Source: Planctomycetota bacterium
Lineage (GTDB): Bacteria; Planctomycetota; Phycisphaerae; Phycisphaerales; SM1A02
DNA length: 31,416 bases
Assembly (NCBI GenBank): GCA_003671065.1
Contig: QWPU01000001.1
Span: 1-31,416, forward strand
Reading direction: 5' to 3'
The notes below the pieces were generated by a model that saw nothing but the letters and a program-made list of their open reading frames with translations, did not search any database and was not told the DNA's origin. The position numbers and the translations under genes are program-made. Within the stretch, counting starts at the first letter, position 1; each line of letters starts with the position of its first letter. Shown here one piece after another: positions 8,732 to 30,789 of the stretch.

Positions 8732-8736
8732 TGCAT

Positions 8737-8757
8737 CGGAAAGGTACGACCCTTCCG
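8737..8757 (-). terminator. GC-rich hairpin 50 nt downstream of the prpD-like stop, a possible operon-end terminator or stabilising stem
   Basis: Minus-strand RNA CGGAAGGGU-cgu-ACCUUUCCG forms a 9-bp stem with one G-U pair. There is no U-tract, so it is not a classical intrinsic terminator. Confidence 0.3.
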
Positions 8758-8806
8758 AGCGAAAATCGATCACGCGTTTGTAACAAGCCCCGCGGCTGAT
8801 CTCGGC

Positions 8807-10264
8807 TTACGCGCCGCGCACGGTCAGCGCCATCAACTTGTTGACATTCGGCGCCGTGTCAATGGCCATGATCTCCGCGCGCAACGCCTCGCACTGCGCA
8901 CGACCAAGCACTGAGTCTCCGAGCGCGTGGAACTTCACAGCGATCTCGTCGACCGTCATCGGATCGCGCGGATCACCCTTGGGCACATCGACGCGCACGC
9001 AATATTGCTTGCCGTTCTTGAGCGTGATCGTCACGCGGCTTGGTTGAAATTTCGGGAAGAGTTTCTCGAACTCATCGTTGGGAACGACCTTCACCATGTC
9101 CATGATGGGAATGAGCGCCTTGTCCATCACGCGTTCTTCTTTGAACTGCAGCGGTGTGACCATGCCATCGACCATGCCTGCCGCCATGCAATAAGGCAAC
9201 GAGTGATCGGCGGTTTCTTTGCTGTCGGGACGATACTTGTGCGGATCGCCAAGAATGTCGGCAGCGCGCGCGATCACTTCGACCTTGATCTCGGTGACAT
9301 CATTCACATGCACATTGCCTTCAGCGCGCGCTTTGAACATCGCTGTCAATGGCGCGTGCGAAAGCGCTTCGACGGGGAAGCTCTTCATGCCGCAATCGAG
9401 AATGCGCCAGTGGCACTTCGACGAAGTAGGTAACGCATCGAGCAACATGTTCACATCAAACCGCGCTGGCTCACCCTTGTACTGCACATGGGAAAACACC
9501 GCGAAAAGCCCCTCTTTACCGTCGAATATGTGCTCGGGTCCCGAGTAGCCACGCTGTGCAAGCAACGCACTTTCAACACCCATTCGCGTCGCCCACGGAT
9601 CAACCGTGTTCTTCATGTTGGTGAGTTTGCCCGCAGTCACGGCTCCTGGCGAGAAGGTACGCGCGGCACTGATGCCGATCGCGTTCACCATTTGCTCAAC
9701 GGTGAGGTTGAGCATGCGACCGGCGGCGATTGGTGCTGCAAACGCGGTGAGCGTTGCGTGATGCCAACCGTACTCGCGAATACCTGGGAGACCGAACTCG
9801 CACAGACGCATTTCGATTTCATACGCAATCGCGGTTCCGAGCAACAAGTCTTTGCCGCTGAGCCCGAGCATTTCAGCAAGCGCGAGAGGTCCCGCGATGA
9901 TGTCGCTTGGATGGCATGGATCCGCCTTCCAATAGATGTCGTTGTAATCCATCGCGCGAATCATGTGATTGTTCAAGAACGACGCATCAACAGCATTCGT
10001 CTTAAAACCAGTCACAAACGATGTGCATGGACCGTGACCTTTGTCACCTTGTGCGGTCATCGCTCGATAGTGTGCGAGCAAGATGTGAGCATCTTCTTGA
10101 CCGCTACCACCAATCGCGCAGCCGATCGAGTCAAACCAGAATCGCTTGCACGCGTCGATGGCGGCGGGCGAAAGTGATTCTGGAGTCAACGCGCACGCCC
10201 ATTCGGCGAGTGTGCGAGAGAGGTGCTTGACGGATGGCTTCTTGGTTTCGGTGGTAGCGGACAT
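8807..10264 (-). CDS. prpD: MmgE/PrpD family dehydratase (2-methylcitrate dehydratase-like)
   Basis: Motifs DSIGCAIGG, RAMDYNDIY, CHPSD, LAYE-like IAYEI, GWHH, GLF, KSFP and ETADHSLPY. Start at ATG 10264 with AGGA upstream. The symbol denotes the family; substrate is uncertain. Confidence 0.88.
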   Translation of the reverse strand: MSATTETKKPSVKHLSRTLAEWACALTPESLSPAAIDACKRFWFDSIGCAIGGSGQEDAHILLAHYRAMTAQGDKGHGPCTSFVTGFKTNAVDASFLNNHMIRAMDYNDIYWKADPCHPSDIIAGPLALAEMLGLSGKDLLLGTAIAYEIEMRLCEFGLPGIREYGWHHATLTAFAAPIAAGRMLNLTVEQMVNAIGISAARTFSPGAVTAGKLTNMKNTVDPWATRMGVESALLAQRGYSGPEHIFDGKEGLFAVFSHVQYKGEPARFDVNMLLDALPTSSKCHWRILDCGMKSFPVEALSHAPLTAMFKARAEGNVHVNDVTEIKVEVIARAADILGDPHKYRPDSKETADHSLPYCMAAGMVDGMVTPLQFKEERVMDKALIPIMDMVKVVPNDEFEKLFPKFQPSRVTITLKNGKQYCVRVDVPKGDPRDPMTVDEIAVKFHALGDSVLGRAQCEALRAEIMAIDTAPNVNKLMALTVRGA

Positions 10265-10322
10265 TGATTGATTCCTACACGAGATTTTGACAACGGCTTC
10301 AGAACACATCACTTCTCACGCA

Positions 10323-11477
10323 CTACTTCGCGACATACTTCGCAACTGCGCGACCGACATCAAGCGTCGTGTCTTTGCCACCCATGTCGTAGGTCTTCAC
10401 TTTGCCTTCTTCGATGACGCGCACAATCGCGGACTCAAGCGCGGCGGCGCGCTCGGTTTCGCCGAGCCACTCAAGCATCATGCGCGCGGTCAGCAACATC
10501 GCGTGCGGATTCACCTTGTATTGCCCTGCATACTTCGGCGCGCTGCCGTGAGTCGGTTCGAACACCGCATAGGTGTCACCGATGTTTGCGCTCGGTGCAA
10601 AGCCAAGTCCACCGATGATGCCTGCGCACAGATCGCTCACGATGTCGCCGAACATATTCTCGGCGACGATCACTGAGTACTCCTGCGGATTCTTAAACAT
10701 CCACATGCAGATCGCATCAATGTTCGCTTCGTCAGCCCAGATGTCTGGATATTCAGTTGCGATCTCGCGGAAGAGACGCGTCATCATGCCGCCTGTGGCG
10801 CGCAAGACATTCGGCTTCTCGACGAGCGTCACACGCTTGCGACCGTTCTTCTTCGCGAACTCAAATGCTTGACGCAGAATGTTCGTGCAACCAGCCTTGC
10901 TCACAATGCGCGTTGAAAGCGCGATGTTTTCCAGTCCTTTCGCTTTCCACGGCTTCATCTTCGGATTGAGGCAGAGCGCGTCGTACACAGCTTCGGGCAG
11001 CGGGTTGAACTCAACACCGCCGTACATGCCTTCAGTGTTTTCACGGAAGACCACGATGTCACACATGACATCAGCGGCCGTTGGATTGGCCAAACGCGTG
11101 CCGCGATAATTGAGCGGATTGCCTTTGTATGTCTTGCATGGACGCAGATTCGTGTGCAGATTAAACATCTGACGCAGTTGCACGATCGGCGAGAAGTAGA
11201 CGAGGTTCTTCGAGCGCAGCGCAGGATCGAGTTCGAGCAGCGCGTCATCTTGCGGCTTGCTGGTGATCGCGCCGAAGAGACCGCAGTGCGTGCGCTTGAG
11301 CACTTCAATCGTGCGATCAGGCAGCGGATTGCCTTCTTTGCACCAGAACTCCCAACCGATGTCGCAGTGGATGTATGTGGCATCGAGCTTCATCGCATCG
11401 AGCACGATGCGCGTTGCTTCCATCACATCGTTACCGATTCCGTCTCCTGGCATCCACGCGATTTGGTGCTTGGTCAT
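10323..11477 (-). CDS. Isocitrate/isopropylmalate/homoisocitrate dehydrogenase family beta-decarboxylating dehydrogenase
   Basis: Motifs PGDGIG, LRQ...NLRP, FRENTEGMY, KPNVL, IDAICM, NMFGDIVSD, GLGFAPSAN and FEPTHGSAPKYAG. Start at ATG 11477 with AGGAG RBS. Confidence 0.92.
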   Translation of the reverse strand: MTKHQIAWMPGDGIGNDVMEATRIVLDAMKLDATYIHCDIGWEFWCKEGNPLPDRTIEVLKRTHCGLFGAITSKPQDDALLELDPALRSKNLVYFSPIVQLRQMFNLHTNLRPCKTYKGNPLNYRGTRLANPTAADVMCDIVVFRENTEGMYGGVEFNPLPEAVYDALCLNPKMKPWKAKGLENIALSTRIVSKAGCTNILRQAFEFAKKNGRKRVTLVEKPNVLRATGGMMTRLFREIATEYPDIWADEANIDAICMWMFKNPQEYSVIVAENMFGDIVSDLCAGIIGGLGFAPSANIGDTYAVFEPTHGSAPKYAGQYKVNPHAMLLTARMMLEWLGETERAAALESAIVRVIEEGKVKTYDMGGKDTTLDVGRAVAKYVAK

Positions 11478-11591
11478 TGTAAATCTCCTGCGAGTAGTTA
11501 TGAAGCGCCGCCATGCGACGCCGAAGTAGGTGCGAAAGTCTAATGAAACCGCTGCGCCGAGGTTGCCCTCAACTCGGTCGAGGAAACACAA

Positions 11592-13583
11592 TCATGCAGG
11601 TTTGAGCGCGGCGAGTCGCTTCTGAATCAATGCTTCTGCCCCACCAGCCACGATGAGTTCCTGCGCGACGGGCGAGAGCGGCGTGAAGCCGAATTCGCGA
11701 TCCGACCACGCGAGGCGGCCAGTTGCGAAGTCGATTGATAGGTCGCCGAGATTGACAGTTTTAGCAGGAGCACTCGAACGCACCTTCGCGCGCATCGCGT
11801 CAACGAGTTCAGGTGCTTCGAAACAGAGGAATCCATTGTTGAAAGCGTTGCGCTTATACGTTTCGCTGAAGCTGCCTGCGATGACACAAGGCACGCCGAA
11901 ATACTTGAGCGCTGTTGCGGCTTGCTCGCGACTCGAGCCCGTGCCGAAGTTGTAGCCACCGATGACGATGTCGCCTGCGTGCGCGGTTGTGCGAAAATCT
12001 GCGTCGTAGTTTTCAAACACGACCGCAGCCATTTCACTCGGCGTGAGTTTGTCGTTGTAGGTGTGCTTGCCTGCGAAGATGCCGTCGGTGTTGAGGTTGT
12101 CGCGATCCATGAATCGCGCAGAACCACGGAGTTTCTCAGGGAATCCAGCGATGATCTGCGCGCTCGCTGCGGGACGCGGCGCGCTAGTCATTCGCGTGAA
12201 ACTCATCGTCGGCTTGATGTTCGCAAATGGTGTCGGTGCGCAGATGTAGCCCGCGAGCGCACTTGCAGCGACCACTGCAGGCGAACCGAGATACACCAGT
12301 CCTTCACGGTCACCCATGCGTCCTTCGAAGTTGCGGTTGGTCGACGAGATGCCGACTTCGCCTTTCTTGATCAGCCCTTCGCCGAGACCGATGCATGTGC
12401 CGCATCCTGCTGGAAGCGTTGTCGCGCCGCAGTCAATGAGCGCTTGCCAGTGACCGAGTCGTTGCGCTTCCGCGCGCACTTCGCTGCTTGCGGGAGCAAC
12501 GAAAAACTCGACACCACTCGCGACCCGTTTGCCGCGCACGATGTCCGCTGCAGCCGCAAGATCTTCAAGTCGCGCGTTCACGCATGACATGAGCCACGCC
12601 TTCTGAATCGCAATCTGCTTCACTTCGATCTCAGGCAAACTCGACATCGCCTTCACTTCATTAGGCCCCGACACATGCGGCACAACCGTGCTCACATCGA
12701 GCGTCAATTCTGCGGCGTAGCGTGCATCAGAATCCGCGGCGTAACTCGCGCGTTCATTCCACCAACGCGCCACATCATCATGCGTGTAACTGCCGCGTGA
12801 ACCCGCGCGTCGTTCGCCTGGTCGTGAAGCCTTCGCAAAGACTTCTGCTCGTGAATCGAGATATTCGCGCAGCACTGCATCAAACGGAAACAAACCCGCA
12901 AGCGCGCCCCACTCAGTCGTCATGTTCGAAATCGACATGCGGCTTCCCATCGAAAGACTCGCAACACCTTCGCCCACAAACTCAACCGCGTGATTGAGCA
13001 CTTCATCGTTCTTGAACAAACCACAGAGCGCGACAATCACATCTTTGCCAACGACACCAGGCATGAGCCGACCAGTGAGCGTCACGCGCGCCACTGGCGG
13101 CACTTGCCACCATGTCGTGCCCGTCGCCCAAATGCTCGCCGCATCCGTGCGCACAACGGGAGTTCCAAGTGCACACAACGCGCCATACATATTCGAGTGC
13201 GAATCACTGCCGACCACCATCGCGCCTGGCACCACATAACCCTGCTCGACCATCACTTGATGCGAGATGCCTGTGCCCGCGGGATAGAAGTCGACACCGT
13301 GTTCTGCTGCAAACATGCCGATTTTTGCATACTTTCCAAGATTGTCGGCCGTGACATTTTGGATGTCGTGGTCAATCGCAAACACCGCTTGATTCGGATC
13401 GAAGATGCGCGTGGCACCAATCGACTTGAACTTAGGAATCACCGCGCCCGTGTTGTCGTGCGTCATGATGTGCTTGGGGCGGATCATCACGAACTCGCCC
13501 TGACGCACGATGGCGCCCTGCGCTAGCCCATCAGTCCAGCGCGCGGCGATCTTCTCAACGAGTGTGAGTGCATGAGTCGTCAT
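11592..13583 (-). CDS. lysF: Single-chain homoaconitase-like hydratase (fungal Lys4/LysF type; aconitase large and swivel domains fused)
   Basis: Motifs TLVEKI, THDN, DHD, GISHQ, GSDSHS, GTPVVRTDAASIWATGTTWWQVPPV and NMTTEWGAL. Fe-S cysteines in SCVN and GCGTCIG. STNRNFEGRMG. Swivel domain NLNTDGI and NFGTGSSREQA. Motif wording matches fungal Lys4 as I recall it. Confidence 0.85.
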   Translation of the reverse strand: MTTHALTLVEKIAARWTDGLAQGAIVRQGEFVMIRPKHIMTHDNTGAVIPKFKSIGATRIFDPNQAVFAIDHDIQNVTADNLGKYAKIGMFAAEHGVDFYPAGTGISHQVMVEQGYVVPGAMVVGSDSHSNMYGALCALGTPVVRTDAASIWATGTTWWQVPPVARVTLTGRLMPGVVGKDVIVALCGLFKNDEVLNHAVEFVGEGVASLSMGSRMSISNMTTEWGALAGLFPFDAVLREYLDSRAEVFAKASRPGERRAGSRGSYTHDDVARWWNERASYAADSDARYAAELTLDVSTVVPHVSGPNEVKAMSSLPEIEVKQIAIQKAWLMSCVNARLEDLAAAADIVRGKRVASGVEFFVAPASSEVRAEAQRLGHWQALIDCGATTLPAGCGTCIGLGEGLIKKGEVGISSTNRNFEGRMGDREGLVYLGSPAVVAASALAGYICAPTPFANIKPTMSFTRMTSAPRPAASAQIIAGFPEKLRGSARFMDRDNLNTDGIFAGKHTYNDKLTPSEMAAVVFENYDADFRTTAHAGDIVIGGYNFGTGSSREQAATALKYFGVPCVIAGSFSETYKRNAFNNGFLCFEAPELVDAMRAKVRSSAPAKTVNLGDLSIDFATGRLAWSDREFGFTPLSPVAQELIVAGGAEALIQKRLAALKPA

Positions 13584-13598
13584 GAGTGGTGCTTTCAA

Positions 13599-14189
13599 TT
13601 ACTTCTTGCTTGCAGCGCGCTTCCCCAGCCACTTGGCGATGTCGAAATCCACGAAGTCAGCGTGGTGGAAGATGATCGACTCGATGCTGCGTTCAACTTT
13701 GTCGCCTTCGTGACTGTGCGTGGCAATGATGTGCATGACATCTGCAGGAACTCCGTGCTTGTAAGCCATTGCGACACCACTGAACGGATGACGCAGCGCT
13801 TCGCCGAAGGAACCCTTGATGATGTCTCCTGCTGCATTCTTATCGAATTCCAGCGGTTTTCCACAGTCGGCGAGCAAGGCGCCCGCGATCAGGTAATCGC
13901 GATTGATAGGAATGTCGCAAGTGAAAGCCGATTCAAGCACATCCGCAATCGCAATGCACTGACGCGCGCATGAGTTCAAGTGCTCGACGAATGTCATCTC
14001 GATATCGCCCGCAAGCAGCGTGAACTTCACGGCGCGCAACTCATCGACTGTCCAGCCTTTGCCGCCACAGCCCGTGTTGATGGCTTCGTTCCACACGGCT
14101 GCAACTCGATCGCGCAGTGATGCGTCCTTGATGTCCATGAGGTTGGGGAAAATCGCGGCGATGTCGGCGGTGGTAAAGGTCTTAGGCAT
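13599..14189 (-). CDS. HD-superfamily (HDIG-like) putative metalloprotein with an AD in place of the HD motif
   Basis: Motifs FVEH, IAGALLADCGK, LRHPFSG, IATHSHEGD and FHHADF. Start at ATG 14189; the ORF track starts at 14201. Confidence 0.75.
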   Translation of the reverse strand: MPKTFTTADIAAIFPNLMDIKDASLRDRVAAVWNEAINTGCGGKGWTVDELRAVKFTLLAGDIEMTFVEHLNSCARQCIAIADVLESAFTCDIPINRDYLIAGALLADCGKPLEFDKNAAGDIIKGSFGEALRHPFSGVAMAYKHGVPADVMHIIATHSHEGDKVERSIESIIFHHADFVDFDIAKWLGKRAASKK

Positions 14190-14213
14190 GGTGTGGTTCA
14201 AGATGAAAGAAAC

Positions 14214-15914
14214 TCAGGCGTTGATGGGTCCGTCGTACGCGTGCTTCACAGGATCGATGCGGCGCATTGGCTTCTCGCGCGTTTGTTCTTCGACGACATG
14301 CGCAACAAGTCCTGGCGTTCGCGCAATCATGAAGATGCCGTTGAAGAGCGCAGGATCAAGCCCAACATCAGCGAGAATCGCACCGATCGCGCCATCGACA
14401 TTGATCGGAAGCGGCTTGCCCGTTGCAGCAAACGCAGCTTCAAGCGCGCGCGCGGCAGCGATGTGAGCGCCGTTGATACCTGCAAGCGCGGCGAGTTCAA
14501 AGAGTCGCGGCGTGCGCGGATCTTTAGTGTGAATGCGATGACCAAAGCCGCTGAAGCGTTCGCCTCGCGCTTTGAACTCCATCATCGTTGCGTTTGCAGC
14601 CGCATCAATTGTGATGCGCTCACTCGACGCGCGCGCGATCAGTGCTGCAAGTTGGCGCGCGCAATCTTCGATCGCACCACCGTGATGACGATTGATCGAC
14701 ATGATGCCCGCAGCAACGCTCGCCCCGAGTGACGCGCCTGTCGAAGCGACGGTGCGCGCAGCAAGGCATGACGGCGGCGTCGCTCCGTGATCAATGCTCG
14801 CAACCAAAATCGCATCCATCAATCGCCCCACGCGTTCATCAGGCAGCGCGCCTGTGAGAATCAGATACACCGCGGCGCCAAAGGATGTGTTGCCCATGAG
14901 GTCTGCGATGTTGTGCCCGCGCACCGCAACATTGTTCGGCGCAATACGCGTGACGGCGGTCGTCCACACTGCTTCTCGTTCAGCCTGCGTCATAAGACTC
15001 TTTCCACCAAGTCGTTTGAGCACTTCAACAGTCGCGCTCGCGAGATCGCCAAACGCCTCAACCACCGTTGCGCCCGCTTCACGCAATGCCAGCACTTTGC
15101 CTGCGTGTGTACCGCGTCCACCTTCGATGATCGCGCCTGCGTGACTGAAGCGAGTGCCTTCTTTTGCAGCCTTTCCGCCGATGTATGCGATGACTGGCTT
15201 TGTCACACGCTTGCTTCGAATGAGCTCAGCGAGTTCTTCTTCTTGCGATGAACCGATTTCACCAAACACAACAATCGCTTCAGTTTGCGCGTCCGCTTCA
15301 AAGCGCAACGCTGCCTCGGGAATGCGAATGCCAAGCACCGCATCGCCGCCGACATGCACGATGGTGCTGATGCGCACGCCTTCTTGACCGAGGTAATAGC
15401 CCGTTGAACTACTCATGCCACCTGAACGACTCACGATGCCAACACCAGTTGGTAGCGGTGGCTTGAACCACTGGCGCGCGCTCTCTGCGCGTCCACCGAG
15501 CATGCCTGCAACAGCGCGACCTGGACTCAACACACCGAGCGTGTTCGGACCAAGAAACTCAGCGCCCTTCTCGGCTGCGCGCTCGGCAATCGCCATCGCG
15601 TCCCACACAGGCACGCGATCCGCAACAAGCACAACGAGCTTGACGCCCGCATCAATCGCTTCGATCGCAGCTTCGCGCACCATCTTTGCGGGCACGAACA
15701 GCACGCTCACATCAATAGCGCCGACGCTCTTGATTGCGTCAGAAACCGTATGAAACACAGGGATTCCAAGCACTTCGCCGCCGCCGCGACCTGGCGTCAC
15801 GCCTGCAACGACATTGGTTCCATAGTCAAGCATGAGACTCGTGCGCGCTTGACCTTCACGACCAGTGATGCCTTGCACACACACGCGCTTTGTTCGATCG
15901 ATGAGAATGCTCAT
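14214..15914 (-). CDS. Succinyl-CoA-synthetase alpha-like subunit fused to a citryl-CoA lyase (citrate synthase fold) domain; ACL subunit A-like
   Basis: N-terminal about 300 aa: VQGITGREG, GVTPGRGG, LGPNTLG, SRSGG, HVGGD, GEIG and the phospho-His motif FSHAGAI. C-terminal about 260 aa: IDHG, HHGGA, GFGHR, DPR, NVDG and ARTPGLVAH. Confidence 0.9.
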   Translation of the reverse strand: MSILIDRTKRVCVQGITGREGQARTSLMLDYGTNVVAGVTPGRGGGEVLGIPVFHTVSDAIKSVGAIDVSVLFVPAKMVREAAIEAIDAGVKLVVLVADRVPVWDAMAIAERAAEKGAEFLGPNTLGVLSPGRAVAGMLGGRAESARQWFKPPLPTGVGIVSRSGGMSSSTGYYLGQEGVRISTIVHVGGDAVLGIRIPEAALRFEADAQTEAIVVFGEIGSSQEEELAELIRSKRVTKPVIAYIGGKAAKEGTRFSHAGAIIEGGRGTHAGKVLALREAGATVVEAFGDLASATVEVLKRLGGKSLMTQAEREAVWTTAVTRIAPNNVAVRGHNIADLMGNTSFGAAVYLILTGALPDERVGRLMDAILVASIDHGATPPSCLAARTVASTGASLGASVAAGIMSINRHHGGAIEDCARQLAALIARASSERITIDAAANATMMEFKARGERFSGFGHRIHTKDPRTPRLFELAALAGINGAHIAAARALEAAFAATGKPLPINVDGAIGAILADVGLDPALFNGIFMIARTPGLVAHVVEEQTREKPMRRIDPVKHAYDGPINA

Positions 15915-17452
15915 GCGCCACCTCCGCAGCCATCGAGCGCTCGCGTTGGATCAGCAATATCCAGTTCAACAAAGAACCCTGCGACACCAGACGCGCGGCA
16001 TTCCACTTCGCACGCGATGAGTTCGCTGTCTTTCGAAGCGAATTTGTCGGCATCGACATTGAGTGCAGGACGACCAGCATCATCGCGCAAAAGACCAGAG
16101 GACTGCGCAATGATCTTCGCTGCGTGTGTTGTCCACGCCGCAGGATCGATCCACACTCGTCCACCTGTTATTGGAAAACTCACTGCGTTCTTTGCGCCAA
16201 CAAATGCTGGCATACGCGGCGCGCGCGGCTTCCAACACGCGTTCGCTTCTTCGACAAGTTCACCAAAGCGCTTCGCAATCTTCGCAGGAGGATCAGTCTT
16301 CACGAAGCCTTCAATCTTCGCGCGCAGATCTCGCGCTGCTTGATGCAGAATCGCGACGGCGCGTTCTTCACCATTGCCGCCAAGACGAATGACGACAGGG
16401 ATATCAATGTCGAGTTCGTAGAACGCTTTCGCGAGTCCATACGCGCTCCAGAATTGTTCTTGATTTGCAACACCCGATCCTGAGCCGAAGTAGCCGCATA
16501 GTCCAGGCTGCGAGAGAATCACGCGACTCGCGCGATACACCTTTGCGGCTGAAGGATTTCCACTGGTGTCTGTGAAGTTCGCAACAGTGAAGTGCTCGGC
16601 GGTGAGCGCATCCATGCTCATCATCGAACCGCCACCGCCCGCGCCGTGAAAGCCCGCGAGACCACGCGTGCCCGCAGCAGCCGTGTTTGCAAGCTCTGCG
16701 AAGTAGAAGGTGCCGCGATGATCTGCTTGCTCGATGTTGTAGGCGACGCGTTCAAGCGCGGTCGGCGGATGATCGAACTCGCGCGCGATTTCAATGCCGA
16801 GATCAGGATGACGCCACACCGCGTAATCGTCGATGGTGATGCGGCAATCAGCGGCAACCACGCTTCCATCCGCAAGAATCACCAGTGGATTCACCTCGAC
16901 GCTGCTGGCATCGCGCGATTTCGCGAGAGTGAAGATCGCGCAGATCGCTGCCGACACCGACGCGCGCTCCGTTGTTGACAGTCCAAGCGCTGCAATCGCC
17001 GATGCAAGCGCGGCCGCATCAGGTCCACTTGAAACGCGGCACGGAATGCGAGCAACTTCATTCGCGCGTTCTTCGATGCCCGTGCCGCCAGCAGCCGCAA
17101 GCAGAATCACTGGTGCACGCGCGCGATCATCAACACTGAGCGACACAAATAATTCGCGCACAAAGGAAAGCTTTTCTTCGACTAAGACCGCGTCGACTGG
17201 AAAGTTGCCGACGCGCATGCCGATCATGCGATCTGCGGCAACCGCAGCTTGCGCGGGCGTCGTCGCAAACGCCACGCCGCCGATGCCTTTGCGGCCAGTC
17301 ATCCACGCCTGAATCTTCACAACGGTCTCGCAACCGAGTTGCGCCGCGACTTTCTCAGCGGCCTGCGCGCTTGATGCGACAGCGCCGCGTGGAATCTTGA
17401 TGCCTGCTGCAGCAAGCAGCGCTTTACCTTGGTGTTCATGCAGTCGCGCCAT
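15911..17452 (-). CDS. Succinyl-CoA-synthetase beta / ATP-citrate lyase subunit B-like ATP-grasp ligase subunit with a C-terminal extension
   Basis: Motifs RLHEHQGK, VVKIQ..GRKGIGGV, LVEE, ELFVS, EVNPL, ADCRITIDDYA, GAGGGGS, NFTDTSGNP and RLGGN. Start at ATG 17452. The stop overlaps the alpha-subunit start (ATGA). Confidence 0.88.
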   Translation of the reverse strand: MARLHEHQGKALLAAAGIKIPRGAVASSAQAAEKVAAQLGCETVVKIQAWMTGRKGIGGVAFATTPAQAAVAADRMIGMRVGNFPVDAVLVEEKLSFVRELFVSLSVDDRARAPVILLAAAGGTGIEERANEVARIPCRVSSGPDAAALASAIAALGLSTTERASVSAAICAIFTLAKSRDASSVEVNPLVILADGSVVAADCRITIDDYAVWRHPDLGIEIAREFDHPPTALERVAYNIEQADHRGTFYFAELANTAAAGTRGLAGFHGAGGGGSMMSMDALTAEHFTVANFTDTSGNPSAAKVYRASRVILSQPGLCGYFGSGSGVANQEQFWSAYGLAKAFYELDIDIPVVIRLGGNGEERAVAILHQAARDLRAKIEGFVKTDPPAKIAKRFGELVEEANACWKPRAPRMPAFVGAKNAVSFPITGGRVWIDPAAWTTHAAKIIAQSSGLLRDDAGRPALNVDADKFASKDSELIACEVECRASGVAGFFVELDIADPTRALDGCGGGA

Positions 17453-17528
17453 TTGTGGGGCGCAGTGTAGAGAAGCTTCCATGATTGCGTGACGATTTCG
17501 CAGCGCTTCACCTGTTAGAGTTCATCTC

Positions 17529-18599
17529 GTGACGCAGCAGAATCAGTCGCGATATCACCGCCAAGAGCTACTCGCGGGCATTGGACCTGACGGCCAGGCG
17601 AGGTTGCGAGCGTCTCACGCATTAGTTGTTGGATGCGGCGCGCTCGGTTGCGCGGTCGTCGACATTCTTGCGCGCGCGGGCATCGGACGACTCACGATTG
17701 TGGATCGCGACATTGTTGAACGAACCAACTTGCAGCGGCAAACGCTGTATTCCGAACGCGATGCGGCCAATGGAACACCCAAGGCAATCGCGGCACAGCG
17801 TCGCGTCGCAGAGATCAATCCCGAGGTCATCTGCCGCGGCGAAGTTGATCATGTCGGACCTGAAAGCGTGCTGTCTTACGCGCGTGACACCGATGTGATT
17901 CTCGATGGTCTCGACAACTTGCACACGCGCTTCCTACTCAATGATGTCGCGGTTTCACTGGGAAAACCCTACTTCTACGGCGGTGTTGTCGCCACGCGCG
18001 GCATGTCGATGCCAGTGTTGCGCGATGAGGCCTGTCTGCGCTGCTTGTTTCCCGACAGCTCGATGCAAACGGGCGAAACTTGCGACACGGTGGGCGTGTT
18101 GATGAGTGCGGTGCTAGCAGTCAGCGCGCATCAAGCGACGCAAGCGATCAAGTGGATTGTCGGCGCGCACGCCGCGATTGATCGTTCGCTCTGGTCGATG
18201 GATGCGTGGACGAATCGCACGACGCGAGTTTCGTTGACCAATGCGCGTGATGCGAATTGTCCCTGCTGCGCTGCGCGAAACTTTGAGTTTCTTGCGGGAA
18301 TGCACGACGATCAGGCCGCGATATTGTGTGGCCGCAACGCTGTGCAGATTGCGCCGCGTCGCACGGGGACGAACGCGACGATGGCGCTTGATCTTCGACG
18401 CGCCGCCGTGACACTCCGCGCGCATGGAACATTCATCGAACGCGACGGACTGCTTGTCGGCACATTCACAAGCGTGCGCACCAACGACGATAGCGCGGTC
18501 GAACTCACACTCTTTCCCGATGGACGCGCGATCGTGAAGGGCACGACGGATGAAGTGTTCGCTCGCAGCGTCTATGACCGCTTTGTGAGCGGACTTTAG
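17529..18599 (+). CDS. moeB: ThiF/MoeB family adenylyltransferase (molybdopterin synthase sulfur-carrier activating enzyme)
   Basis: RYHRQ, nucleotide-binding VVGCGALG, DRDIVERTNLQRQ, DGLDN, and Zn sites CLRC and CPCC. No rhodanese domain. Located in the Moco cluster. Confidence 0.85.
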   Translation: MTQQNQSRYHRQELLAGIGPDGQARLRASHALVVGCGALGCAVVDILARAGIGRLTIVDRDIVERTNLQRQTLYSERDAANGTPKAIAAQRRVAEINPEVICRGEVDHVGPESVLSYARDTDVILDGLDNLHTRFLLNDVAVSLGKPYFYGGVVATRGMSMPVLRDEACLRCLFPDSSMQTGETCDTVGVLMSAVLAVSAHQATQAIKWIVGAHAAIDRSLWSMDAWTNRTTRVSLTNARDANCPCCAARNFEFLAGMHDDQAAILCGRNAVQIAPRRTGTNATMALDLRRAAVTLRAHGTFIERDGLLVGTFTSVRTNDDSAVELTLFPDGRAIVKGTTDEVFARSVYDRFVSGL

Positions 18600-18635
18600 A
18601 ACAGCGCGTTTGCAGCCAAAATAGGCTTCATTTCG

Positions 18636-19382
18636 ATGGACCCCTCGCACCTTCCCATCCTCGTGCCGCTCTTTCTGATTGTGGGCGTGCTCTATGCGAG
18701 CGTCGGTCACGCGGGCGCATCGGGCTACCTCGCAGTAATGGCGCTTGTCGGCGTTGAAGCCACACTCATGCGGCCGACGGCGCTTGCAATCAACATCCTT
18801 GTCGCCAGCATTGCGCTCGCGCAGTTTGCACGCGCGGGATTTTTCTCGTGGCGATTGCTCTGGCCATTTGCAGCGCTCTCGATACCAGCCGCGTACTTCG
18901 GCGCCATGATCAAAGTAGGACCAGGAACACTTCGCGTCAGTATCGGAATCGTGCTACTCGCAAGCGCGCTGCGGATGGTGTGGGTCGCGTGGCGACCAGC
19001 GAGCGAAGTGATCACACCTCAAGCGCCCGCGATCGGCGTCGGGCTTGCGTGCGGAGCGATGATTGGTTTCGTCGCTGGATTGACGGGCACAGGTGGCGGC
19101 ATTTTTCTGAGCCCGCTGCTTCTTATCTTCAATTGGGCAGATACCAAACGAACCGCCGCGATTGCGCCGGCATTCATTCTCGTCAACTCGATCGCCGCGC
19201 TCACCGCGCTTTCGCAAGAAGGTTGGCAGCCAACTCCTGCGATCGGCGTGCTCGCGCTTGCCGCGTGCGTGGGCGGATTCATCGGCGCGCACTTCGGAAG
19301 TCGCCGCCTTGGACATCGTGGATTGCGCGTTGTTCTCGCCCTCGTGCTTGCGCTTGCAAGTGCGAAGCTCATCCTCAGTTAA
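18636..19382 (+). CDS. TauE/SafE (TSUP, DUF81) family membrane permease
   Basis: About 8 hydrophobic segments with the repeated motifs VGHAGASGY and GLTGTGGGIFLSP. Confidence 0.87.
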   Translation: MDPSHLPILVPLFLIVGVLYASVGHAGASGYLAVMALVGVEATLMRPTALAINILVASIALAQFARAGFFSWRLLWPFAALSIPAAYFGAMIKVGPGTLRVSIGIVLLASALRMVWVAWRPASEVITPQAPAIGVGLACGAMIGFVAGLTGTGGGIFLSPLLLIFNWADTKRTAAIAPAFILVNSIAALTALSQEGWQPTPAIGVLALAACVGGFIGAHFGSRRLGHRGLRVVLALVLALASAKLILS

Positions 19383-19437
19383 CCTGATTTGCCCTGTGAT
19401 AATCGCTATTACGGATATGATAGTCTAGATATACTCG

Positions 19438-20535
19438 ATGCGAACTTCGATCTGTACAACTCCCCTGCCGCTGAAGCTGTTTGGATCGACTTCGGTCGCT
19501 TCCACAGTCGTGCCTGATGCAGCCGCGCCGCATCCGACCACGGGCGCGTTGATCGATCGATTCGGACGCGTCGTGCGTGACTTGCGACTTTCGATCACTG
19601 ATCGTTGCAACTTTCGATGCACCTACTGTCTGACACCTGACGCGCGATTCCTAGCGACCTCTGATCGCTTGAGCACTGCGGAACTCATTCGCGTTGGGCG
19701 CGTGTTCGCACGACTCGGCATCGAACGACTGCGCGTCACGGGTGGTGAACCGAGTGTGCATCCTGATCTGATTGAGATTCTTTCGGCGCTTTCACCGCTG
19801 TTTCACGATGTATCGATGACGACGAATGGATCGCTTCTCGACGACGACAGCGCTCGCGCGTGGAAAGCTGCGGGGTTGCGACGCGTCACCATCAGCATCG
19901 ACTCACTGGATCCTGCGCGCTTTCAAGCAGTCACTCGTTCGAATGTCACAAGTGAGCGCGTGCTTGCGGGTTTGCGTGCGGCGATCAATGCTGGACTCGG
20001 ACCCGTGAAGGTCAACTCAGTGCTACTTGCAGGCGTGAATGACGCAGACGCTCCTGCGCTTGCTGCACTCGCGCGTGAGCTCGCGCTTGAAGTGCGCTTC
20101 ATTGAGTTCATGCCGCTTGATGCGGATGGCATTTGGAGTCACGACACGGTTGTCTCCAGCGAACGCACGATTTTGGGCATTTCCAAGGTGTTTCCGCTGG
20201 TGCTTGAGGGACGGGATCGACCTGATCGCACCGCGGTGCGCTATCGATTCGTCGACGGTGCCGAGGGAAGCGTCAGCACAATTGCGCCAGTTTCAACGCC
20301 GTTCTGCGCGGAGTGCAGTCGTGTACGCGTCACGGCTGACGGCTTCATTCGGCCCTGCTTGCTCACCAACGCTGAGTGGCCGTTGCGAGAACTCTTGCGC
20401 GATGGATCGAGTGATGATGCGATTGAATGTGCGATTCGCCACGCGGTGTGGAACAAGGACGCGGGTGGCGCACTGCGATTGAGCGCTGCGAGAAGTGGCG
20501 CGCGCGGACGAACGATGTCCGCGATCGGAGGCTAA
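19438..20535 (+). CDS. moaA: GTP 3',8-cyclase (radical SAM)
   Basis: DRFGR..DLRLSITDRCNFRCTYC, RVTGGEP, RFIEFMP, the C-terminal cluster motif FCAECSRVRVTADG...CL, and terminal MSAIGG. Confidence 0.95.
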   Translation: MRTSICTTPLPLKLFGSTSVASTVVPDAAAPHPTTGALIDRFGRVVRDLRLSITDRCNFRCTYCLTPDARFLATSDRLSTAELIRVGRVFARLGIERLRVTGGEPSVHPDLIEILSALSPLFHDVSMTTNGSLLDDDSARAWKAAGLRRVTISIDSLDPARFQAVTRSNVTSERVLAGLRAAINAGLGPVKVNSVLLAGVNDADAPALAALARELALEVRFIEFMPLDADGIWSHDTVVSSERTILGISKVFPLVLEGRDRPDRTAVRYRFVDGAEGSVSTIAPVSTPFCAECSRVRVTADGFIRPCLLTNAEWPLRELLRDGSSDDAIECAIRHAVWNKDAGGALRLSAARSGARGRTMSAIGG

Positions 20536-20987
20536 CGCTCGTGACTTGCGCGCTCATCAACATCGTTGTGAAACACAGGTCGCTTCCACAACGGCACATC
20601 GATCTTCATTCGATCGATGAACTCGCCCATCGCCAACAGTGCCTCGACGCGATGCGCGGAATCGATGGTCAAGCGGAAACTGCACTCGCCGACAGCGACG
20701 CGACCAACGCTGTGTTCAACCGCAACACGCACCAGCCCGTGCTTGATGCAAACTTCACGCGCGAGTTGTTCAAGCAAACGATCTGCCATCGGACGATACG
20801 CCTCGTAGTTGAGCGCAGCGATGACTCGCTCACCTTCTTGCGCGCGAACGATTCCTTCGAACTTCAGCGCCGCGCCCACAGTGCACGCTCCATCGCCAAG
20901 CAGCGGCAGAGCCGCGCAGCTCACTCCAAGTGGACCGTCGATGAGCGTGATAGTGATGATTGGTGTGTCATTCGCCACGGTGTTCAT
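20532..20987 (-). CDS. moaE: Molybdopterin synthase catalytic subunit
   Basis: GA..FEGIVR, LNYEAY..MA, HSVGRVAVGE, HRVEA and IDRMKIDVPLWK. The ATG at 20987 overlaps the moaD stop (ATGA). Confidence 0.93.
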   Translation of the reverse strand: MNTVANDTPIITITLIDGPLGVSCAALPLLGDGACTVGAALKFEGIVRAQEGERVIAALNYEAYRPMADRLLEQLAREVCIKHGLVRVAVEHSVGRVAVGECSFRLTIDSAHRVEALLAMGEFIDRMKIDVPLWKRPVFHNDVDERASHER

Positions 20988-21229
20988 CCGCCAGAAACAA
21001 GCCCAATCAAAGCACATTCGTCGTTCTCAAGCACGCGTCGATCGCGTTGTGCAAACTCGCCGTTGACCGCAAGTCGCGCAGCGCGCACTGCATTCGCAAT
21101 GGAGGGACACTGCGAGGCCAATGCCCCCAGCACATCGGCAGCAGATGCGCCGTGTGCAACCTCAACGACTACGCTCGACGCTCCAACGGCGTCGCGCTCG
21201 GGACCAAACAAGAGCACTTTGACTTTCAT
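20984..21229 (-). CDS. moaD: Molybdopterin synthase sulfur carrier subunit (81 aa)
   Basis: MKVKVLLFG..., AVNGEF and the C-terminal VSGG. Start moved from ORF-track 21406 to ATG 21229. Confidence 0.92.
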   Translation of the reverse strand: MKVKVLLFGPERDAVGASSVVVEVAHGASAADVLGALASQCPSIANAVRAARLAVNGEFAQRDRRVLENDECALIGLVSGG

Positions 21230-21249
21230 GTGAAGCAAGGAATATAGCA

Positions 21250-21639
21250 ATGGCGACACGCGCACAAACAACACGAACTTCAAAGCCAGGCAAAGCGAAG
21301 GTATCGCCGAAGACTCCAGGCTCTTATCAACGATTTGGGATCGAGCAGCCGACGATCCTCGCTCACTACGAAGCGCTGGGACTTGCGTGCGCACAAGCTG
21401 GGCCACTCGATACGCGCACCATCGCGCTGTGCAAACTCGCGCTTTCTTTCGGCGCGGGGCTCGAAGGCGCCGCGCACTCGCACTGTCGCAAGGCGCTCGA
21501 AGCTGGTTGCACTGCGGATGAACTCATGCATGTTGCAATTCTCGGCGCGCCGACGATTGGCTTTCCATCGATGATGCGCAATCGCGGATGGGTGGAAGAT
21601 GTTGTGAAGGCTCGCGCCTCGAGGTCGACGAAGAAATGA
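21250..21639 (+). CDS. Carboxymuconolactone decarboxylase/AhpD-like family protein
   Basis: GPLDTRTIALCKLALS...HSHCRKALEAG.T..EL.HV..L..PTIGFP pattern of short CMD proteins. No CxxC. The stop overlaps the moeA start (ATGA). Confidence 0.75.
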   Translation: MATRAQTTRTSKPGKAKVSPKTPGSYQRFGIEQPTILAHYEALGLACAQAGPLDTRTIALCKLALSFGAGLEGAAHSHCRKALEAGCTADELMHVAILGAPTIGFPSMMRNRGWVEDVVKARASRSTKK

Positions 21640-22841
21640 CGCTCAGTGCGATCAGCACCATGACACCTGACGACGCGCTTGCTGCGCTGTTGAAAGGTGT
21701 GCGTTGTGTTGAGTGCGAGAGCATCGCGTTGACGCACGCGACTGGTCGAGTGCTCGCACAATCAGTGATGACTGATCGACCGAGTCCTGCGATGGATGTG
21801 AGCGCAATGGACGGTTTTGCACTGCGATTTGCTGATGTTTCGCGTGATGCGCTTGCGATCAGCGACGAGATCAGCGCGGGCGAACCTGCGCAACCGCTGC
21901 AAAGCGATTCGTGCGCGCGTATCGCAACAGGCGCGCCGATTCCGCTTGGCGCAGAGTTGGTTGTGCCGCGCGAACATGTTGATGAAGCAGGCGACAGCAT
22001 CACCGTGCACGCGATTCGCGCGAGTGCTGCGCGAATGGGCGCGCACATTCGTCGGCGTGGTGAGAACGCGGCTGAAGGTGCGTGCGTGCTCGAACGCGGC
22101 GTCGCGATTCACGCGCCCGCCGCAGCAGCGCTTGCTGCGTTTGGCGTTGTGAGTCCGCGCGTCACTCGAAAGGTTCGCATCGCGCTGCTTGTGACTGGCG
22201 ATGAAGTGCGCACGAACGATGATGAACTAGCGCCGTGGTGCGTGCGCGATAGCAACGGCCCTTCAGTCACTGCGCTCTTCGCGCGCCACGCGTGGGCAGC
22301 ACCCATCGTGCCCGAGCATGTCGTTGATAGCGCTGCGGCATTGCGTGATGCGTTGACGCGTGCGATTGAACTACATGATCTCGTGCTCGTCACTGGTGGC
22401 GTCGCTGTAGGCCACCGCGATTTCGTCGCGACGGTCCTCGATGAACTTGGCGCGCAGACGCACTTTCATGGCGTTGCGCAACGACCCGGTCGACCGCTGC
22501 TTGCCGCAACATTGCGCGAGCGTCGCATCCTCTGCCTTCCAGGAAATCCTGTGAGCGTGATGACTACTGCGCGTCGCTATGCACTACCACTCGCGCGCGT
22601 TGTAGCTGGTTTTTCTGCAGCAGAACCGATGTCACACCCAGTCTCGCTCGTCGAGGCGCTGCGTGATTGCGTTCCTCTCACTCGCTTCGTTCCAGTGCAC
22701 ATATCTGCGCACGGCAATGCCCGCGCCCTCATCACGCGCGGCAGCGGTGACAGCGCCGCAGTTGCATCGAGCGACGGTTTCGTTGAGATTCCCGCTTCTG
22801 CGAGCGGCGTTGGACCGTGGCGATTTTTCGAATGGAGTTGA
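21636..22841 (+). CDS. moeA: Molybdopterin molybdotransferase
   Basis: GRVLA, SAMDGFA, IATGAPIP, TGDE, DSN, TGGVAVG..DF, QRPGRP and LPGNPVS. Start at ATG 21636. Confidence 0.93.
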   Translation: MTLSAISTMTPDDALAALLKGVRCVECESIALTHATGRVLAQSVMTDRPSPAMDVSAMDGFALRFADVSRDALAISDEISAGEPAQPLQSDSCARIATGAPIPLGAELVVPREHVDEAGDSITVHAIRASAARMGAHIRRRGENAAEGACVLERGVAIHAPAAAALAAFGVVSPRVTRKVRIALLVTGDEVRTNDDELAPWCVRDSNGPSVTALFARHAWAAPIVPEHVVDSAAALRDALTRAIELHDLVLVTGGVAVGHRDFVATVLDELGAQTHFHGVAQRPGRPLLAATLRERRILCLPGNPVSVMTTARRYALPLARVVAGFSAAEPMSHPVSLVEALRDCVPLTRFVPVHISAHGNARALITRGSGDSAAVASSDGFVEIPASASGVGPWRFFEWS

Positions 22842-22845
22842 ACTC

Positions 22846-23349
22846 ATGACACGCGACACACCTCATCTCACTCATGTTGATTCCGACGGACATGTGCGCA
22901 TGGTCGATGTCACTGCGAAAACTCCCACAGCTCGCATGGCTCGCGCCGAAGCAATCGTGCGTATCTCACCTGAACTTGCGAGTCGCATTCGCGCAGGAAC
23001 GCTTGCGAAGGGTCCCGTGGAGGAAGTCATCCGAATTGCTGCGATTTGCGCGGCAAAACGCACCGACGAACTCATTCCACTCTGCCACACGCTGCCGCTT
23101 GATGGCGTGGATGTGTGCACCACTGTCGCAGATGATCATGTTCGCATCGAAGTGCGTGTCTGCACCTTCGCACGAACAGGCGTCGAGATGGAAGCGTTAG
23201 TCGCCGCTTCAATTGGCGCGCTTGCACTCATCGATATGGGAAAGGCGGTTGACCGCTGGATGGTGATCGAGCGGGTGCGCATGCTTGAAAAACGCGGCGG
23301 TCGCAGCGGCACTCATCTTGCAGCTGATGCGAAAGAGTTCGCGCAGTGA
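22846..23349 (+). CDS. moaC: Cyclic pyranopterin monophosphate synthase
   Basis: LTHVD..G..RMVDV, AKG.V, AAKRTDELIPLCH, TGVEMEAL, DMGKAVD and EKRGGRSG. Start at ATG 22846. Confidence 0.95.
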   Translation: MTRDTPHLTHVDSDGHVRMVDVTAKTPTARMARAEAIVRISPELASRIRAGTLAKGPVEEVIRIAAICAAKRTDELIPLCHTLPLDGVDVCTTVADDHVRIEVRVCTFARTGVEMEALVAASIGALALIDMGKAVDRWMVIERVRMLEKRGGRSGTHLAADAKEFAQ

Positions 23350-24481: not shown

Positions 24482-24489
24482 CGCAATCG

Positions 24490-25185: not shown

Positions 25186-25194
25186 GGCTTGAGA

Positions 25195-26478: not shown

Positions 26479-26494
26479 AGAAGCGGTGGTGATG

Positions 26495-27958: not shown

Positions 27959-27991
27959 GATGTTGGTGTGAACGGAGAGGATACTCGCGAC

Positions 27992-30549: not shown

Positions 30550-30789
30550 CGAAAGTTCCGTCGTTCGTTCTGCCGATTGATGGCGAGAGTGCTTCCAGTT
30601 TTTGAAGGCGAAGATGGTAACGACTTTTCACTCAGCGCCTTCGCTTTCAACGCGTCAATTTCAAGGCGCGAGCATAGGCGCGAGATCTCCATCATCAACG
30701 AGTCCGTTGCCATCAAATTCGCCGCGACTGCCGTGAATAGATTCGCGGCAAACAAAGACCGACTTGCGTTTCTGCCCCATCGAGGCGAA

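Follow-up and report, generated by a model that had tools for sequence, protein, structure and literature searches.

An ATP-citrate-lyase-like gene pair with a remodelled acid-binding loop, and a candidate homocitrate module, on a Planctomycetota contig

The window analysed here is a stretch of 31,416 nucleotides (positions 1 to 31,416 of contig QWPU01000001.1, assembly GCA_003671065.1), which is contig C1 of the source genome G000, a Planctomycetota metagenome-assembled genome that is 78% complete. On its reverse strand it carries two overlapping genes, referred to below as B and A, for the beta and alpha subunits of an acid-CoA ligase, with A continuing into a citryl-CoA-lyase-type domain. 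The pair encodes an enzyme of the type of ATP-citrate lyase (ACL), or of citryl-CoA synthetase (CCS) with citryl-CoA lyase (CCL), whose acid site is distinct and whose substrate is probably new, within a pathway that would itself be undescribed. The reading favoured here, in which confidence and doubt are about equal, is that B and A would form an ATP-linked homocitrate lyase on a route from 2-oxoadipate to acetyl-CoA and 2-oxoglutarate. Support for this reading comes from the operon context of the pair rather than from its acid-binding loop.

Domain architecture and ancestry of the gene pair

Comparison with Pfam identified ATP-grasp_2 in B, and CoA_binding, Ligase_CoA and Citrate_synt in A. 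The two genes overlap by four bases (ATGA at 15911-15914), with the start codon of A lying on the stop codon of B. Since relatives align or begin at Met11 of the longer open reading frame (ORF) of B, the gene was taken to begin there, in agreement with the end coordinate of 17452 given in the original prediction. The N-terminus of A reads MSILIDRTKRVCVQGITGREG, while the citrate-synthase-fold motifs IDHGATPPS, HHGGAIED, GFGHRIHTKDPR and NVDGAIG were identified in its lyase domain. Residues 315-562 of A match the NCBIfam citryl-CoA lyase model NF004869 at 243.1 bits, above the cut-off of 212, and HGGA, GFGHR and NVDG of this domain align to the CCL of H. thermophilus (6hxp). Together with the score of 254 bits for the alpha part against succinyl-CoA synthetase (SCS) alpha, this bears out the earlier description of A as SucD-like yet fused to a full citryl-CoA-lyase domain. 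The SucC model on B (188.2 bits, cut-off 370) and the SucD model on A (264.9 bits, cut-off 336) both remained below their NCBIfam cut-offs. So did, for B, the beta domains of canonical ACL, Citrate_bind (PF16114, 19.3 against 26.8) and Citrate_synth_N (PF24948, 28.2 against 83); the cut-off of Citrate_bind was passed by ACL/CCS-like representatives, which gave strong precomputed matches.

In its layout, A follows the alpha subunit of canonical ACL, having a CoA-binding/phosphohistidine domain and a C-terminal citrate-synthase-fold lyase domain, and with an ATP-grasp beta subunit beside it the ACL-like architecture originally proposed was recovered. A CcsA-like gene followed by a fused ccsB-ccl gene is also the layout of 'type II ACL' (Hugler and Sievert 2011), which has been described on the assumption of citrate cleavage in the reductive tricarboxylic acid (TCA) cycle (PMC5459899, PMC6783814). 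The architecture is not new: for Planctomycetes, a putative ACL with ccsB and ccl fused as one 'aclA' has already been reported (Thiel et al. 2017, PMC5459899), with sequences lying beside type II ACL and not inside it, between that group and the CCS/CCL of Aquificae. These sequences have the same architecture and are evidently the present family. The loop signature, the partner genes described below (for homoaconitase-like, dehydrogenase, PrpD-like and HD-domain proteins) and the occurrence in heterotrophic soil Verrucomicrobia are not discussed in the published accounts of the fused aclA.

The ancestry of the alpha and lyase parts was judged by bit scores against PDB sequences, and that of the beta subunit by a tree as well. 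The beta subunit scored highest against SCS beta (3ufx_B, 148 bits), followed by CcsA (6hxq_B, 104) and AclB (85), and the alpha part against SCS alpha (2yv2_A, 254 bits), followed by AclA (163) and CcsB (6hxq_A, 152). For the lyase domain the best match was the CCL of H. thermophilus (6hxp, 189 bits over 243 residues), with citrate synthases at about 70 bits and the C-terminus of AclA at about 51-53. SCS is therefore the best overall match of the ligase parts, by these scores; the pair differs from SucCD in staying below the NCBIfam cut-offs, in its substrate loop, in its fused lyase domain and in the presence of separate SucD-like and SucC-like genes in G000 (contigs C162 and C40). B and A were not found to be orthologues of CcsA and CcsB, both scoring higher against SCS and the beta subunit falling in a different clade.

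With CcsAB and Ccl of H. thermophilus (6hxq, 6hxp) the pair shares the three modules of ATP-grasp beta subunit, CoA-binding/phosphohistidine alpha subunit and short citrate-synthase-fold lyase, as well as the GGGGS and 'G.NP' segments of the beta subunit. It differs from them in that alpha and lyase are fused, the alpha part is nearer to SCS alpha, the lyase reads DHGAT and not DHGIA, the beta subunit belongs to another clade with QEQ and RL where CcsA has NNT and RR and bears an extra C-terminal domain, and the operon partners are homoaconitase-like and homoisocitrate-dehydrogenase-like. The position of DHGAT corresponds to the oxaloacetate pocket of citrate synthases. A-T follows DHG in five module-type lyases and I-A in both the H. 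thermophilus CCL and the lyase partnering a beta subunit with ANFT and RR, although this is a small sample. AclBA of Chlorobium limicola (6hxj) and human ACLY resemble the pair in the two-subunit layout, in the lyase domain at the alpha C-terminus and presumably in the phosphohistidine mechanism. They differ in that A has 566 residues with a short linker against 617 in AclA, both ACL-specific Pfam models stay below cut-off and the fusion is independent.

Separate ccsB-like and ccl-like genes were found in the relatives G026, G029, G034 and G036 and in the distant cluster L093. As unfused relatives thus exist in the same order and in that cluster, sequence comparison places the origin of the alpha-lyase fusion within the present lineage, independently of canonical AclA, as had been suspected. 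The expectation that automated pipelines would mislabel the pair was also correct: family proteins carry JGI labels of succinyl-CoA synthetase alpha or beta, or of citrate synthase. The protein collection further contains a 259-aa product (P0278) that is 100% identical to the lyase domain (14217-14996, reverse strand), indicating that some gene caller split the fused A even though its frame is open from 15914 to 14214.

The acid-binding loop and clade of the beta subunit

Homologues of B were sought among 1.8 billion cluster representatives, and 91 near-full-length matches were aligned. Three sets of motifs were identified in this alignment. SCS-like beta subunits have GNGAG, FGGITRCDEV and 'RLxG'. 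ACL/CCS-like subunits have (S/G)GGG(A/G)S, G-G-x-A-N-F/N-T and 'RR(A/G)GP', exactly as in CcsA of H. thermophilus. The group to which B belongs has GGGGS, S-G-x-x-A-S/N-Q-E-Q and either 'RLGGN' or 'LIAGN'. The motifs of SCS and ACL given in the original prediction agree with these, library representatives showing '..FGGITRCDEV' with 'GNGAG' and 'GG.ANFT' with 'SGGGAS'. All motifs that it quoted for A and B were located on the sequence, with the loop GSGSGVANQEQ exactly at the position it gave and the glycine loop GAGGGGS further upstream in the gene (Table 1). B lacks the loop signature of canonical ACL, carrying GVANQEQ and IRLGGN in place of G-G-x-A-N-F/N-T and 'RR(A/G)GP', and it also lacks the SCS loop GGI(T/V)RCD. 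Across 25 aligned family members the loop residues A329, Q331 and Q333 (513-aa numbering) are invariant and E332 nearly so. The suggestion that A-N of ACL is kept did not hold for the clade, most members of which have A-S at that position.

A quick maximum-likelihood tree of 88 beta representatives, with groups labelled by motif and not by named sequences, placed B in a clade of 13 rows (support of 99 in the Shimodaira-Hasegawa-like approximate likelihood ratio test, SH-aLRT). This clade is nested in a QEQ clade of 23 rows (SH-aLRT 96). The ACL/CCS-like rows form their own clade (SH-aLRT 100), which groups with the SCS-like rows, away from the QEQ clade. B was thus not found to branch inside canonical ACL, the outcome that had been named as evidence against the original prediction; judged from sequence, the beta subunit belongs to a separate clade outside both the ACL/CCS and the SCS clades. 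The group signatures, the placement in the tree and the invariance of the loop in 25 members indicate that the remodelled loop is real and clade-defining. The second Arg of 'RR' has been lost along with it; in human ACLY this Arg (Arg379) and the loop Thr (Thr348) reportedly contact citrate. A look-up of the clusters of ten beta representatives returned almost no named entries.

A QEQ-clade beta subunit was also identified in a Bathyarchaeial metagenome-assembled genome (L094:9001-12361), where beta and alpha genes are followed by one for a CitE/HpcH-type C-C lyase, with no citrate-synthase-fold lyase in that place. The ligase clade therefore serves more than one type of lyase.

B bears a C-terminal extension of about 108 residues that is absent from SucC, CcsA and AclB. 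Distant members of the clade have two Cys4 motifs at the positions aligned to this extension, along with weak Fer4 matches, while the copy in the window retains only C-E-V-E-C. Because the Cys4 motifs of its relatives are reduced in this manner, the extension probably represents a domain of ferredoxin type from which the cluster ligands have disappeared. A Foldseek search of the PDB with an AF2 model of the extension (predicted local distance difference test, pLDDT, 87) gave no match at E <= 0.001; a small ferredoxin was found at rank 33 (TM 0.61 by target).

The six-gene module, a candidate homocitrate route and its rivals

B and A are the first two genes of a six-gene module with the order B-A-HD-ACN-IDH-PrpD, in which the four genes after A share its strand and are spaced by 0-12 bases. 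The product of the ACN gene is a single-chain (fused) member of the aconitase family, of the Lys4 (homoaconitase) type known from fungi; it passed the homoaconitase model TIGR00139 and missed the cut-offs of the aconitase models in NCBIfam; its nearest Atlas cluster is named 'Homoaconitase, mitochondrial family'. The IDH gene encodes an Iso_dh-family dehydrogenase in which the segment FSPIVQLRQ aligns best with SSPIVALRK of Schizosaccharomyces pombe homoisocitrate dehydrogenase (HICDH). At the SPIV site isocitrate dehydrogenases (IDHs) have S-x-N-V, and the HICDH of T. thermophilus reads GAIRYLRR. The SPIV.LR motif is conserved across the module family, whereas S-L-N and S-I-N stand at this site in two ordinary IDHs from a genome with the module. 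The assignment to the homoisocitrate type is by motif, all curated HICDH models being below cut-off, and the best NCBIfam match, methanogen AksF2, was likewise below its cut-off. The longest ORF of the dehydrogenase (10323-11591, reverse strand) begins with a TTG start 38 codons upstream of MTKHQ (11477), and this extension was not found to be conserved.

The last gene encodes an MmgE/PrpD-family protein that matches IDS epimerase and cis-aconitate decarboxylase in the PDB (82 and 78 bits) better than PrpD (45). All family members of the HD-domain protein have Ala for the His of the HD motif, and 'LLAD.GK' is conserved. No PDB sequence match was found for it, and a fold search with its AF2 model (pLDDT 86) gave generic HD-superfamily neighbours only. 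A phosphohydrolase attached to a system of this kind was seen a second time in L098 (5001-8662), an ACL/CCS-type cluster in which a beta subunit with ANFT and RR is fused to a HAD-family phosphatase domain and is followed by genes for alpha, CutA1, a separate lyase and an inositol-phosphatase-family protein.

The fused A gene was identified in at least 558 species-level genomes. Gene order was compared in 81 loci, namely the 80 best fused-A matches and one contig of 2.4 Mb, many of the loci being incomplete. The hosts of the 80 best matches are Phycisphaerales and other Planctomycetota, and Chthoniobacterales, 'Ca. Udaeobacter' and other Verrucomicrobiota. The order was found to be kept in the two phyla, with B present in 72 of the 81 loci, HD in 63, ACN in 48, IDH in 38 and PrpD in 20. 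Forty relatives were compared for the Lys4-type gene; it occurs in exactly the five that have A and B and in none of the remaining 35. A distant version of the module was found on a 2.7-Mb contig (L093:9001-18224), with a beta subunit 45% identical to B that bears a Cys-rich C-terminal domain. It comprises genes for B, separate alpha and lyase proteins, HD, two HacAB-like heterodimers, a 199-aa protein and a dehydrogenase of the same kind, and has no PrpD-family gene.

If the chemistry is modelled on ATP-citrate lyase by homology, B and A would act as an ADP-forming acid-CoA ligase of two subunits, to which a lyase of citrate-synthase fold is attached. ATP would phosphorylate the His of the FSHAGAI loop, the phosphate would move to a carboxylate of the bound hydroxy-tricarboxylate, and CoA would displace it to give an acyl-CoA, which the fused lyase domain would split into acetyl-CoA and a 2-oxo-dicarboxylate. 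With homocitrate the overall reaction would be homocitrate + ATP + CoA <-> acetyl-CoA + 2-oxoglutarate + ADP + Pi. The acid could be supplied by the partner genes: the Iso_dh enzyme would convert 2-oxoadipate, CO2 and NADPH to homoisocitrate by reductive carboxylation, the Lys4-type enzyme would dehydrate this to cis-homoaconitate, and the PrpD-like enzyme would hydrate the latter to homocitrate. The net route would be 2-oxoadipate + CO2 + NADPH + ATP + CoA -> 2-oxoglutarate + acetyl-CoA, so that the module would represent the upper alpha-aminoadipate pathway in reverse, with 2-oxoadipate coming, for example, from lysine breakdown. The cleavage direction is favoured because of the ATP dependence, the NADP-type HGSAPKYAG of the dehydrogenase and a neighbourhood of lysine-catabolic genes.

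This neighbourhood emerged when ORFs from the flanks of the 81 loci were clustered. Genes for L-lysine 6-transaminase (TIGR03251, 568.7 bits against 520.8) and L-piperideine-6-carboxylate dehydrogenase (NF050084, 783.9 against 730) lie less than 9 kb from the module in 11 and 14 loci, respectively, and an acyl-CoA dehydrogenase and a thiolase-domain gene occur in 24 and 26 flanks. The loci with these neighbours are all Verrucomicrobial. Together the transaminase and the piperideine-6-carboxylate dehydrogenase take lysine as far as 2-aminoadipate, from which a single transamination leads to 2-oxoadipate. In G000 a piperideine-6-carboxylate dehydrogenase was identified on contig C158 (735 against 730).

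The module resembles the fungal upper alpha-aminoadipate pathway (Lys20/21, Aco2, Lys4, Lys12) in its Lys4-type single-chain hydratase, its dehydrogenase with SPIV.LR and its two isomerisation enzymes. It differs in having an ATP-linked ligase-lyase of citrate-synthase fold where fungi have a LeuA-family homocitrate synthase, and a PrpD-family protein where they use aconitase; its dehydrogenase is of NADP type and its hosts use the diaminopimelate route. No match to the LeuA-family homocitrate synthase model TIGR02146 was found in G000 or in the module-bearing relatives, and the ligase-lyase is proposed in its place. Fungal homoaconitases perform only the half-reaction between homoaconitate and homoisocitrate, and homocitrate requires a further enzyme (PMC3556520). 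The two isomerisation enzymes of the module (PrpD-like and Lys4-type, or the two HacAB-like pairs of L093) fit this need.

The homocitrate concerned would probably be the (S) enantiomer, by analogy with the known enzymes of citrate-synthase fold, which to our knowledge all act on the si face. We know of no occurrence of (S)-homocitrate in metabolism. In the methylcitrate cycle it is PrpD that resolves a stereochemical mismatch, and the (S) configuration may by the same analogy explain a PrpD-family enzyme in place of aconitase. More tentatively than homocitrate cleavage as such, it is suggested that an (S)-homocitrate ATP lyase operates in a reductive, CO2-incorporating route of lysine breakdown in soil Verrucomicrobia and freshwater Phycisphaerae, with the PrpD-family enzyme solving the mismatch. 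Homocitrate had been named in the original prediction on account of the loop. That substrate is unproven but has real support in the Lys4-type homoaconitase, the fungal-type dehydrogenase motif and, in other genomes, the lysine-catabolic neighbours, and not in the loop. A literature search found no reports on homocitryl-CoA, and none on the present system linking homocitrate with citryl-CoA or ACL, or Udaeobacter with citrate lyase.

A number of observations weigh against homocitrate cleavage. No lysine-catabolic gene adjoins the module in the window, and lysine 6-transaminase was not found in G000 (78% complete). The reverse route, which consumes ATP and NADPH, is energetically dearer than the usual, energy-yielding glutaryl-CoA route. 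The lyase domain is very close to the characterised CCL of H. thermophilus (189 bits) and retains its catalytic motifs, including the oxaloacetate-binding DH, HGGA, GxGHR..DPR, NVDG and F..AR. Genes for pyruvate:ferredoxin oxidoreductase (PFOR) or a 2-oxoacid:ferredoxin oxidoreductase (OFOR) were identified in all nine other module-bearing genomes examined, so that a role in the reductive TCA cycle is conceivable in those nine. Citrate cleavage is, moreover, the sole published reading of these genes (PMC5459899).

A genuine citrate enzyme, either a CCS/CCL-derived 'type II-like' ACL or a reversed, ATP-yielding citrate synthase, is accordingly a serious rival, although judged somewhat unlikely; the partner genes would then form a private branch between citrate, isocitrate and 2-oxoglutarate. 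Its case is made by the nearness of the lyase domain to a characterised CCL with all active-site motifs retained, by the PFOR/OFOR genes of the nine genomes and by the position of the Planctomycete sequences between Aquificae CCS/CCL and type II ACL (Thiel et al. 2017, PMC5459899). However, the beta subunit has neither the ACL/CCS signature nor a place in that clade, the dehydrogenase shows Ile at the position of the S-x-N Asn shared by all aligned IDHs, and the hydratase passes the homoaconitase cut-off while missing those for aconitase. Citrate would need only one aconitase, but the module retains a pair of enzymes for isomerisation. Canonical citrate synthase, AcnA and IDH are retained in module-bearing genomes, and a second citrate branch would therefore be redundant. 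In G000 (78% complete) no POR_N gene for PFOR or 2-oxoglutarate:ferredoxin oxidoreductase was found, leaving a reductive TCA cycle unsupported there.

Some other 2-hydroxy acid is considered improbable as the substrate, be it a longer homologue (2-oxoadipate + acetyl-CoA <-> (homo)2-citrate, towards 2-oxopimelate) or, as with citramalate and malate, a hydroxy-dicarboxylate. The versatility of the QEQ clade, with its Bathyarchaeial member paired with a CitE/HpcH-type lyase, would allow for it, the loss of Arg and Thr is also compatible with an acid that lacks a third carboxylate, and AksF2, the best if sub-threshold match of the dehydrogenase, acts on longer homologues. The Arg residues of the lyase that hold the distal carboxylate are, however, conserved, and the motif of the dehydrogenase is that of fungal HICDH and not of isopropylmalate dehydrogenase. 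A role in leucine or isoleucine synthesis is unlikely as well, since a search of five near-complete genomes with the module found neither LeuA nor LeuCD in any, and an intact IlvC in just one. Chain elongation of this kind had been considered because of the missing LeuA and LeuCD and was rejected on account of IlvC being missing or broken in four of the five, the lyase Arg for a dicarboxylic oxoacid and the homoisocitrate-type dehydrogenase motif. Methylcitrate was ruled out on chemistry, since 2-methylisocitrate, as a tertiary alcohol, is not open to oxidation by an Iso_dh enzyme.

Lysine biosynthesis, in which the pair would be an ATP-yielding substitute for homocitrate synthase supplying 2-oxoadipate to the alpha-aminoadipate pathway, is far less probable still. 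It is suggested by the Phycisphaerales (STL-PLA9) genome G338, where a LysW-X-Y-Z-K cluster occurs and the homoaconitase candidate of the module is the only one; this genome also has a canonical homocitrate synthase. In G000, four of five module-bearing relatives, most relatives and four Verrucomicrobial genomes, LysA of the diaminopimelate route was identified; none of these LysA-bearing genomes has a homocitrate synthase above cut-off, and LysW was absent where looked for, including the four Verrucomicrobial genomes. Lysine biosynthesis was therefore rejected for G000 and most hosts, with LysA present and homocitrate synthase absent. An ordinary SCS with a decorative domain would explain the top NCBIfam matches to SucC and SucD and the JGI annotation, but can practically be dismissed: the scores are far below the cut-offs, G000 has separate SucD-like and SucC-like genes, and the fused lyase domain and loop signature are conserved.

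Should homocitrate prove to be the substrate, the ATP-citrate lyase scaffold would have a second natural substrate, and very abundant soil bacteria (Chthoniobacterales, 'Ca. Udaeobacter') and freshwater Phycisphaerae would have an undescribed route of central metabolism. Surveys in which homologues of CCS/CCL or ACL serve to mark the reductive TCA cycle would then mis-score hundreds of heterotrophic genomes of the Planctomycetes-Verrucomicrobia-Chlamydiae group as potential autotrophs. A reversible, ATP-coupled enzyme interconverting homocitrate with acetyl-CoA and 2-oxoglutarate would also be useful in engineered pathways to 2-oxoadipate, adipate and lysine. Furthermore, the module shows that the 'fungal' types Lys4 and Lys12 have relatives in bacteria, which bears on the origin of the fungal lysine pathway.

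Host genomes and neighbouring genes

Table 1. Positions of the gene pair, its motifs, the partner genes and one further gene of the window
Feature	Positions	Strand	Evidence or remark
B (beta), ATP-grasp ligase subunit, 513 aa	15911..17452	-	ATP-grasp_2, 119 bits
B, ORF including 5' extension	15911-17482	-	open upstream of Met11
Gly loop GAGGGGS of B	16625..16645	-	GGGGS common to H. thermophilus CcsA; SCS has GNGAG
Acid-binding loop GSGSGVANQEQ of B	16454..16486	-	clade signature A[SN]QEQ
IRLGGNGE segment of B	16367..16390	-	Leu against the second Arg of ACL/CCS 'RR(A/G)GP'
C-terminal extension of B, about 108 aa	15914..16237	-	absent from SucC, CcsA and AclB
A (alpha), 566 aa	14214..15914	-	ORF with Pfam and NCBIfam matches
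SucD-like CoA-binding and phosphohistidine domain, A residues 1-300	15015..15914	-	NF004230, 265 bits, cut-off 336
GVTPGRGG of A	15780-15803	-	
Phosphohistidine loop FSHAGAI of A	15129-15149	-	
Citryl-CoA-lyase-type (citrate-synthase-fold) domain, A residues 313-563	14226..14978	-	NF004869
IDHGATPPS of the lyase domain	14769-14795	-	
HD-domain protein	13599..14201	-	Pfam HD, 32 bits
Single-chain (fused) aconitase-family protein, fungal Lys4 (homoaconitase) type	11592..13598	-	TIGR00139, 728 bits, cut-off 529.9
Iso_dh-family dehydrogenase, probably 384 aa from MTKHQ	10323..11477	-	start inferred from relatives
FSPIVQLRQ of the dehydrogenase	11169-11195	-	
HGSAPKYAG of the dehydrogenase	10524-10550	-	NADP-type; homoisocitrate dehydrogenases have HGSAPDIAG
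MmgE/PrpD-family protein	8807..10312	-	Pfam
HglS-family 2-oxoadipate dioxygenase/decarboxylase	28843-30549	-	PF07063, 285 bits; 11 kb from the module

The module was found in none of 24 genomes of the same genus. The matches of a DNA search with positions 17483-31416 against 30 same-genus genomes were confined to the right-hand quarter of the window, with identities of 64-88%, most of them 64-77%. From the missing module and the confinement of the matches it appears that either the module was recently acquired horizontally, as an island, or contig C1 was mis-binned. The HglS-family gene is not tied to the module, since it was also identified in same-genus genomes without the module (approximately 68% DNA identity).

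Among the other hosts, the complete LysW-LysX-LysY-LysZ-LysK cluster of G338 lies at L090:5857-11441, and its canonical homocitrate synthase scored 473 against a cut-off of 413.55; LysA was absent from this genome, in which the Lys4-type gene of the module is the sole homoaconitase candidate. The Verrucomicrobial genomes G337, G339, G340 and G341 (with loci L029, L043, L024 and L050) were found to have no LeuA or LeuCD, with IlvC missing or broken in three of the four, and these losses fit the reported amino-acid auxotrophy of the Udaeobacter group.

A scan of positions 8000-18000 for promoters and terminators gave fewer sites than shuffled sequence. The stretch 17529-24481, without a DNA match in the 30 same-genus genomes, is divergent from B and carries molybdenum-cofactor genes on the forward strand, including those for a MoeB/ThiF-like protein, a TauE-like permease, MoaA, MoeA and others.

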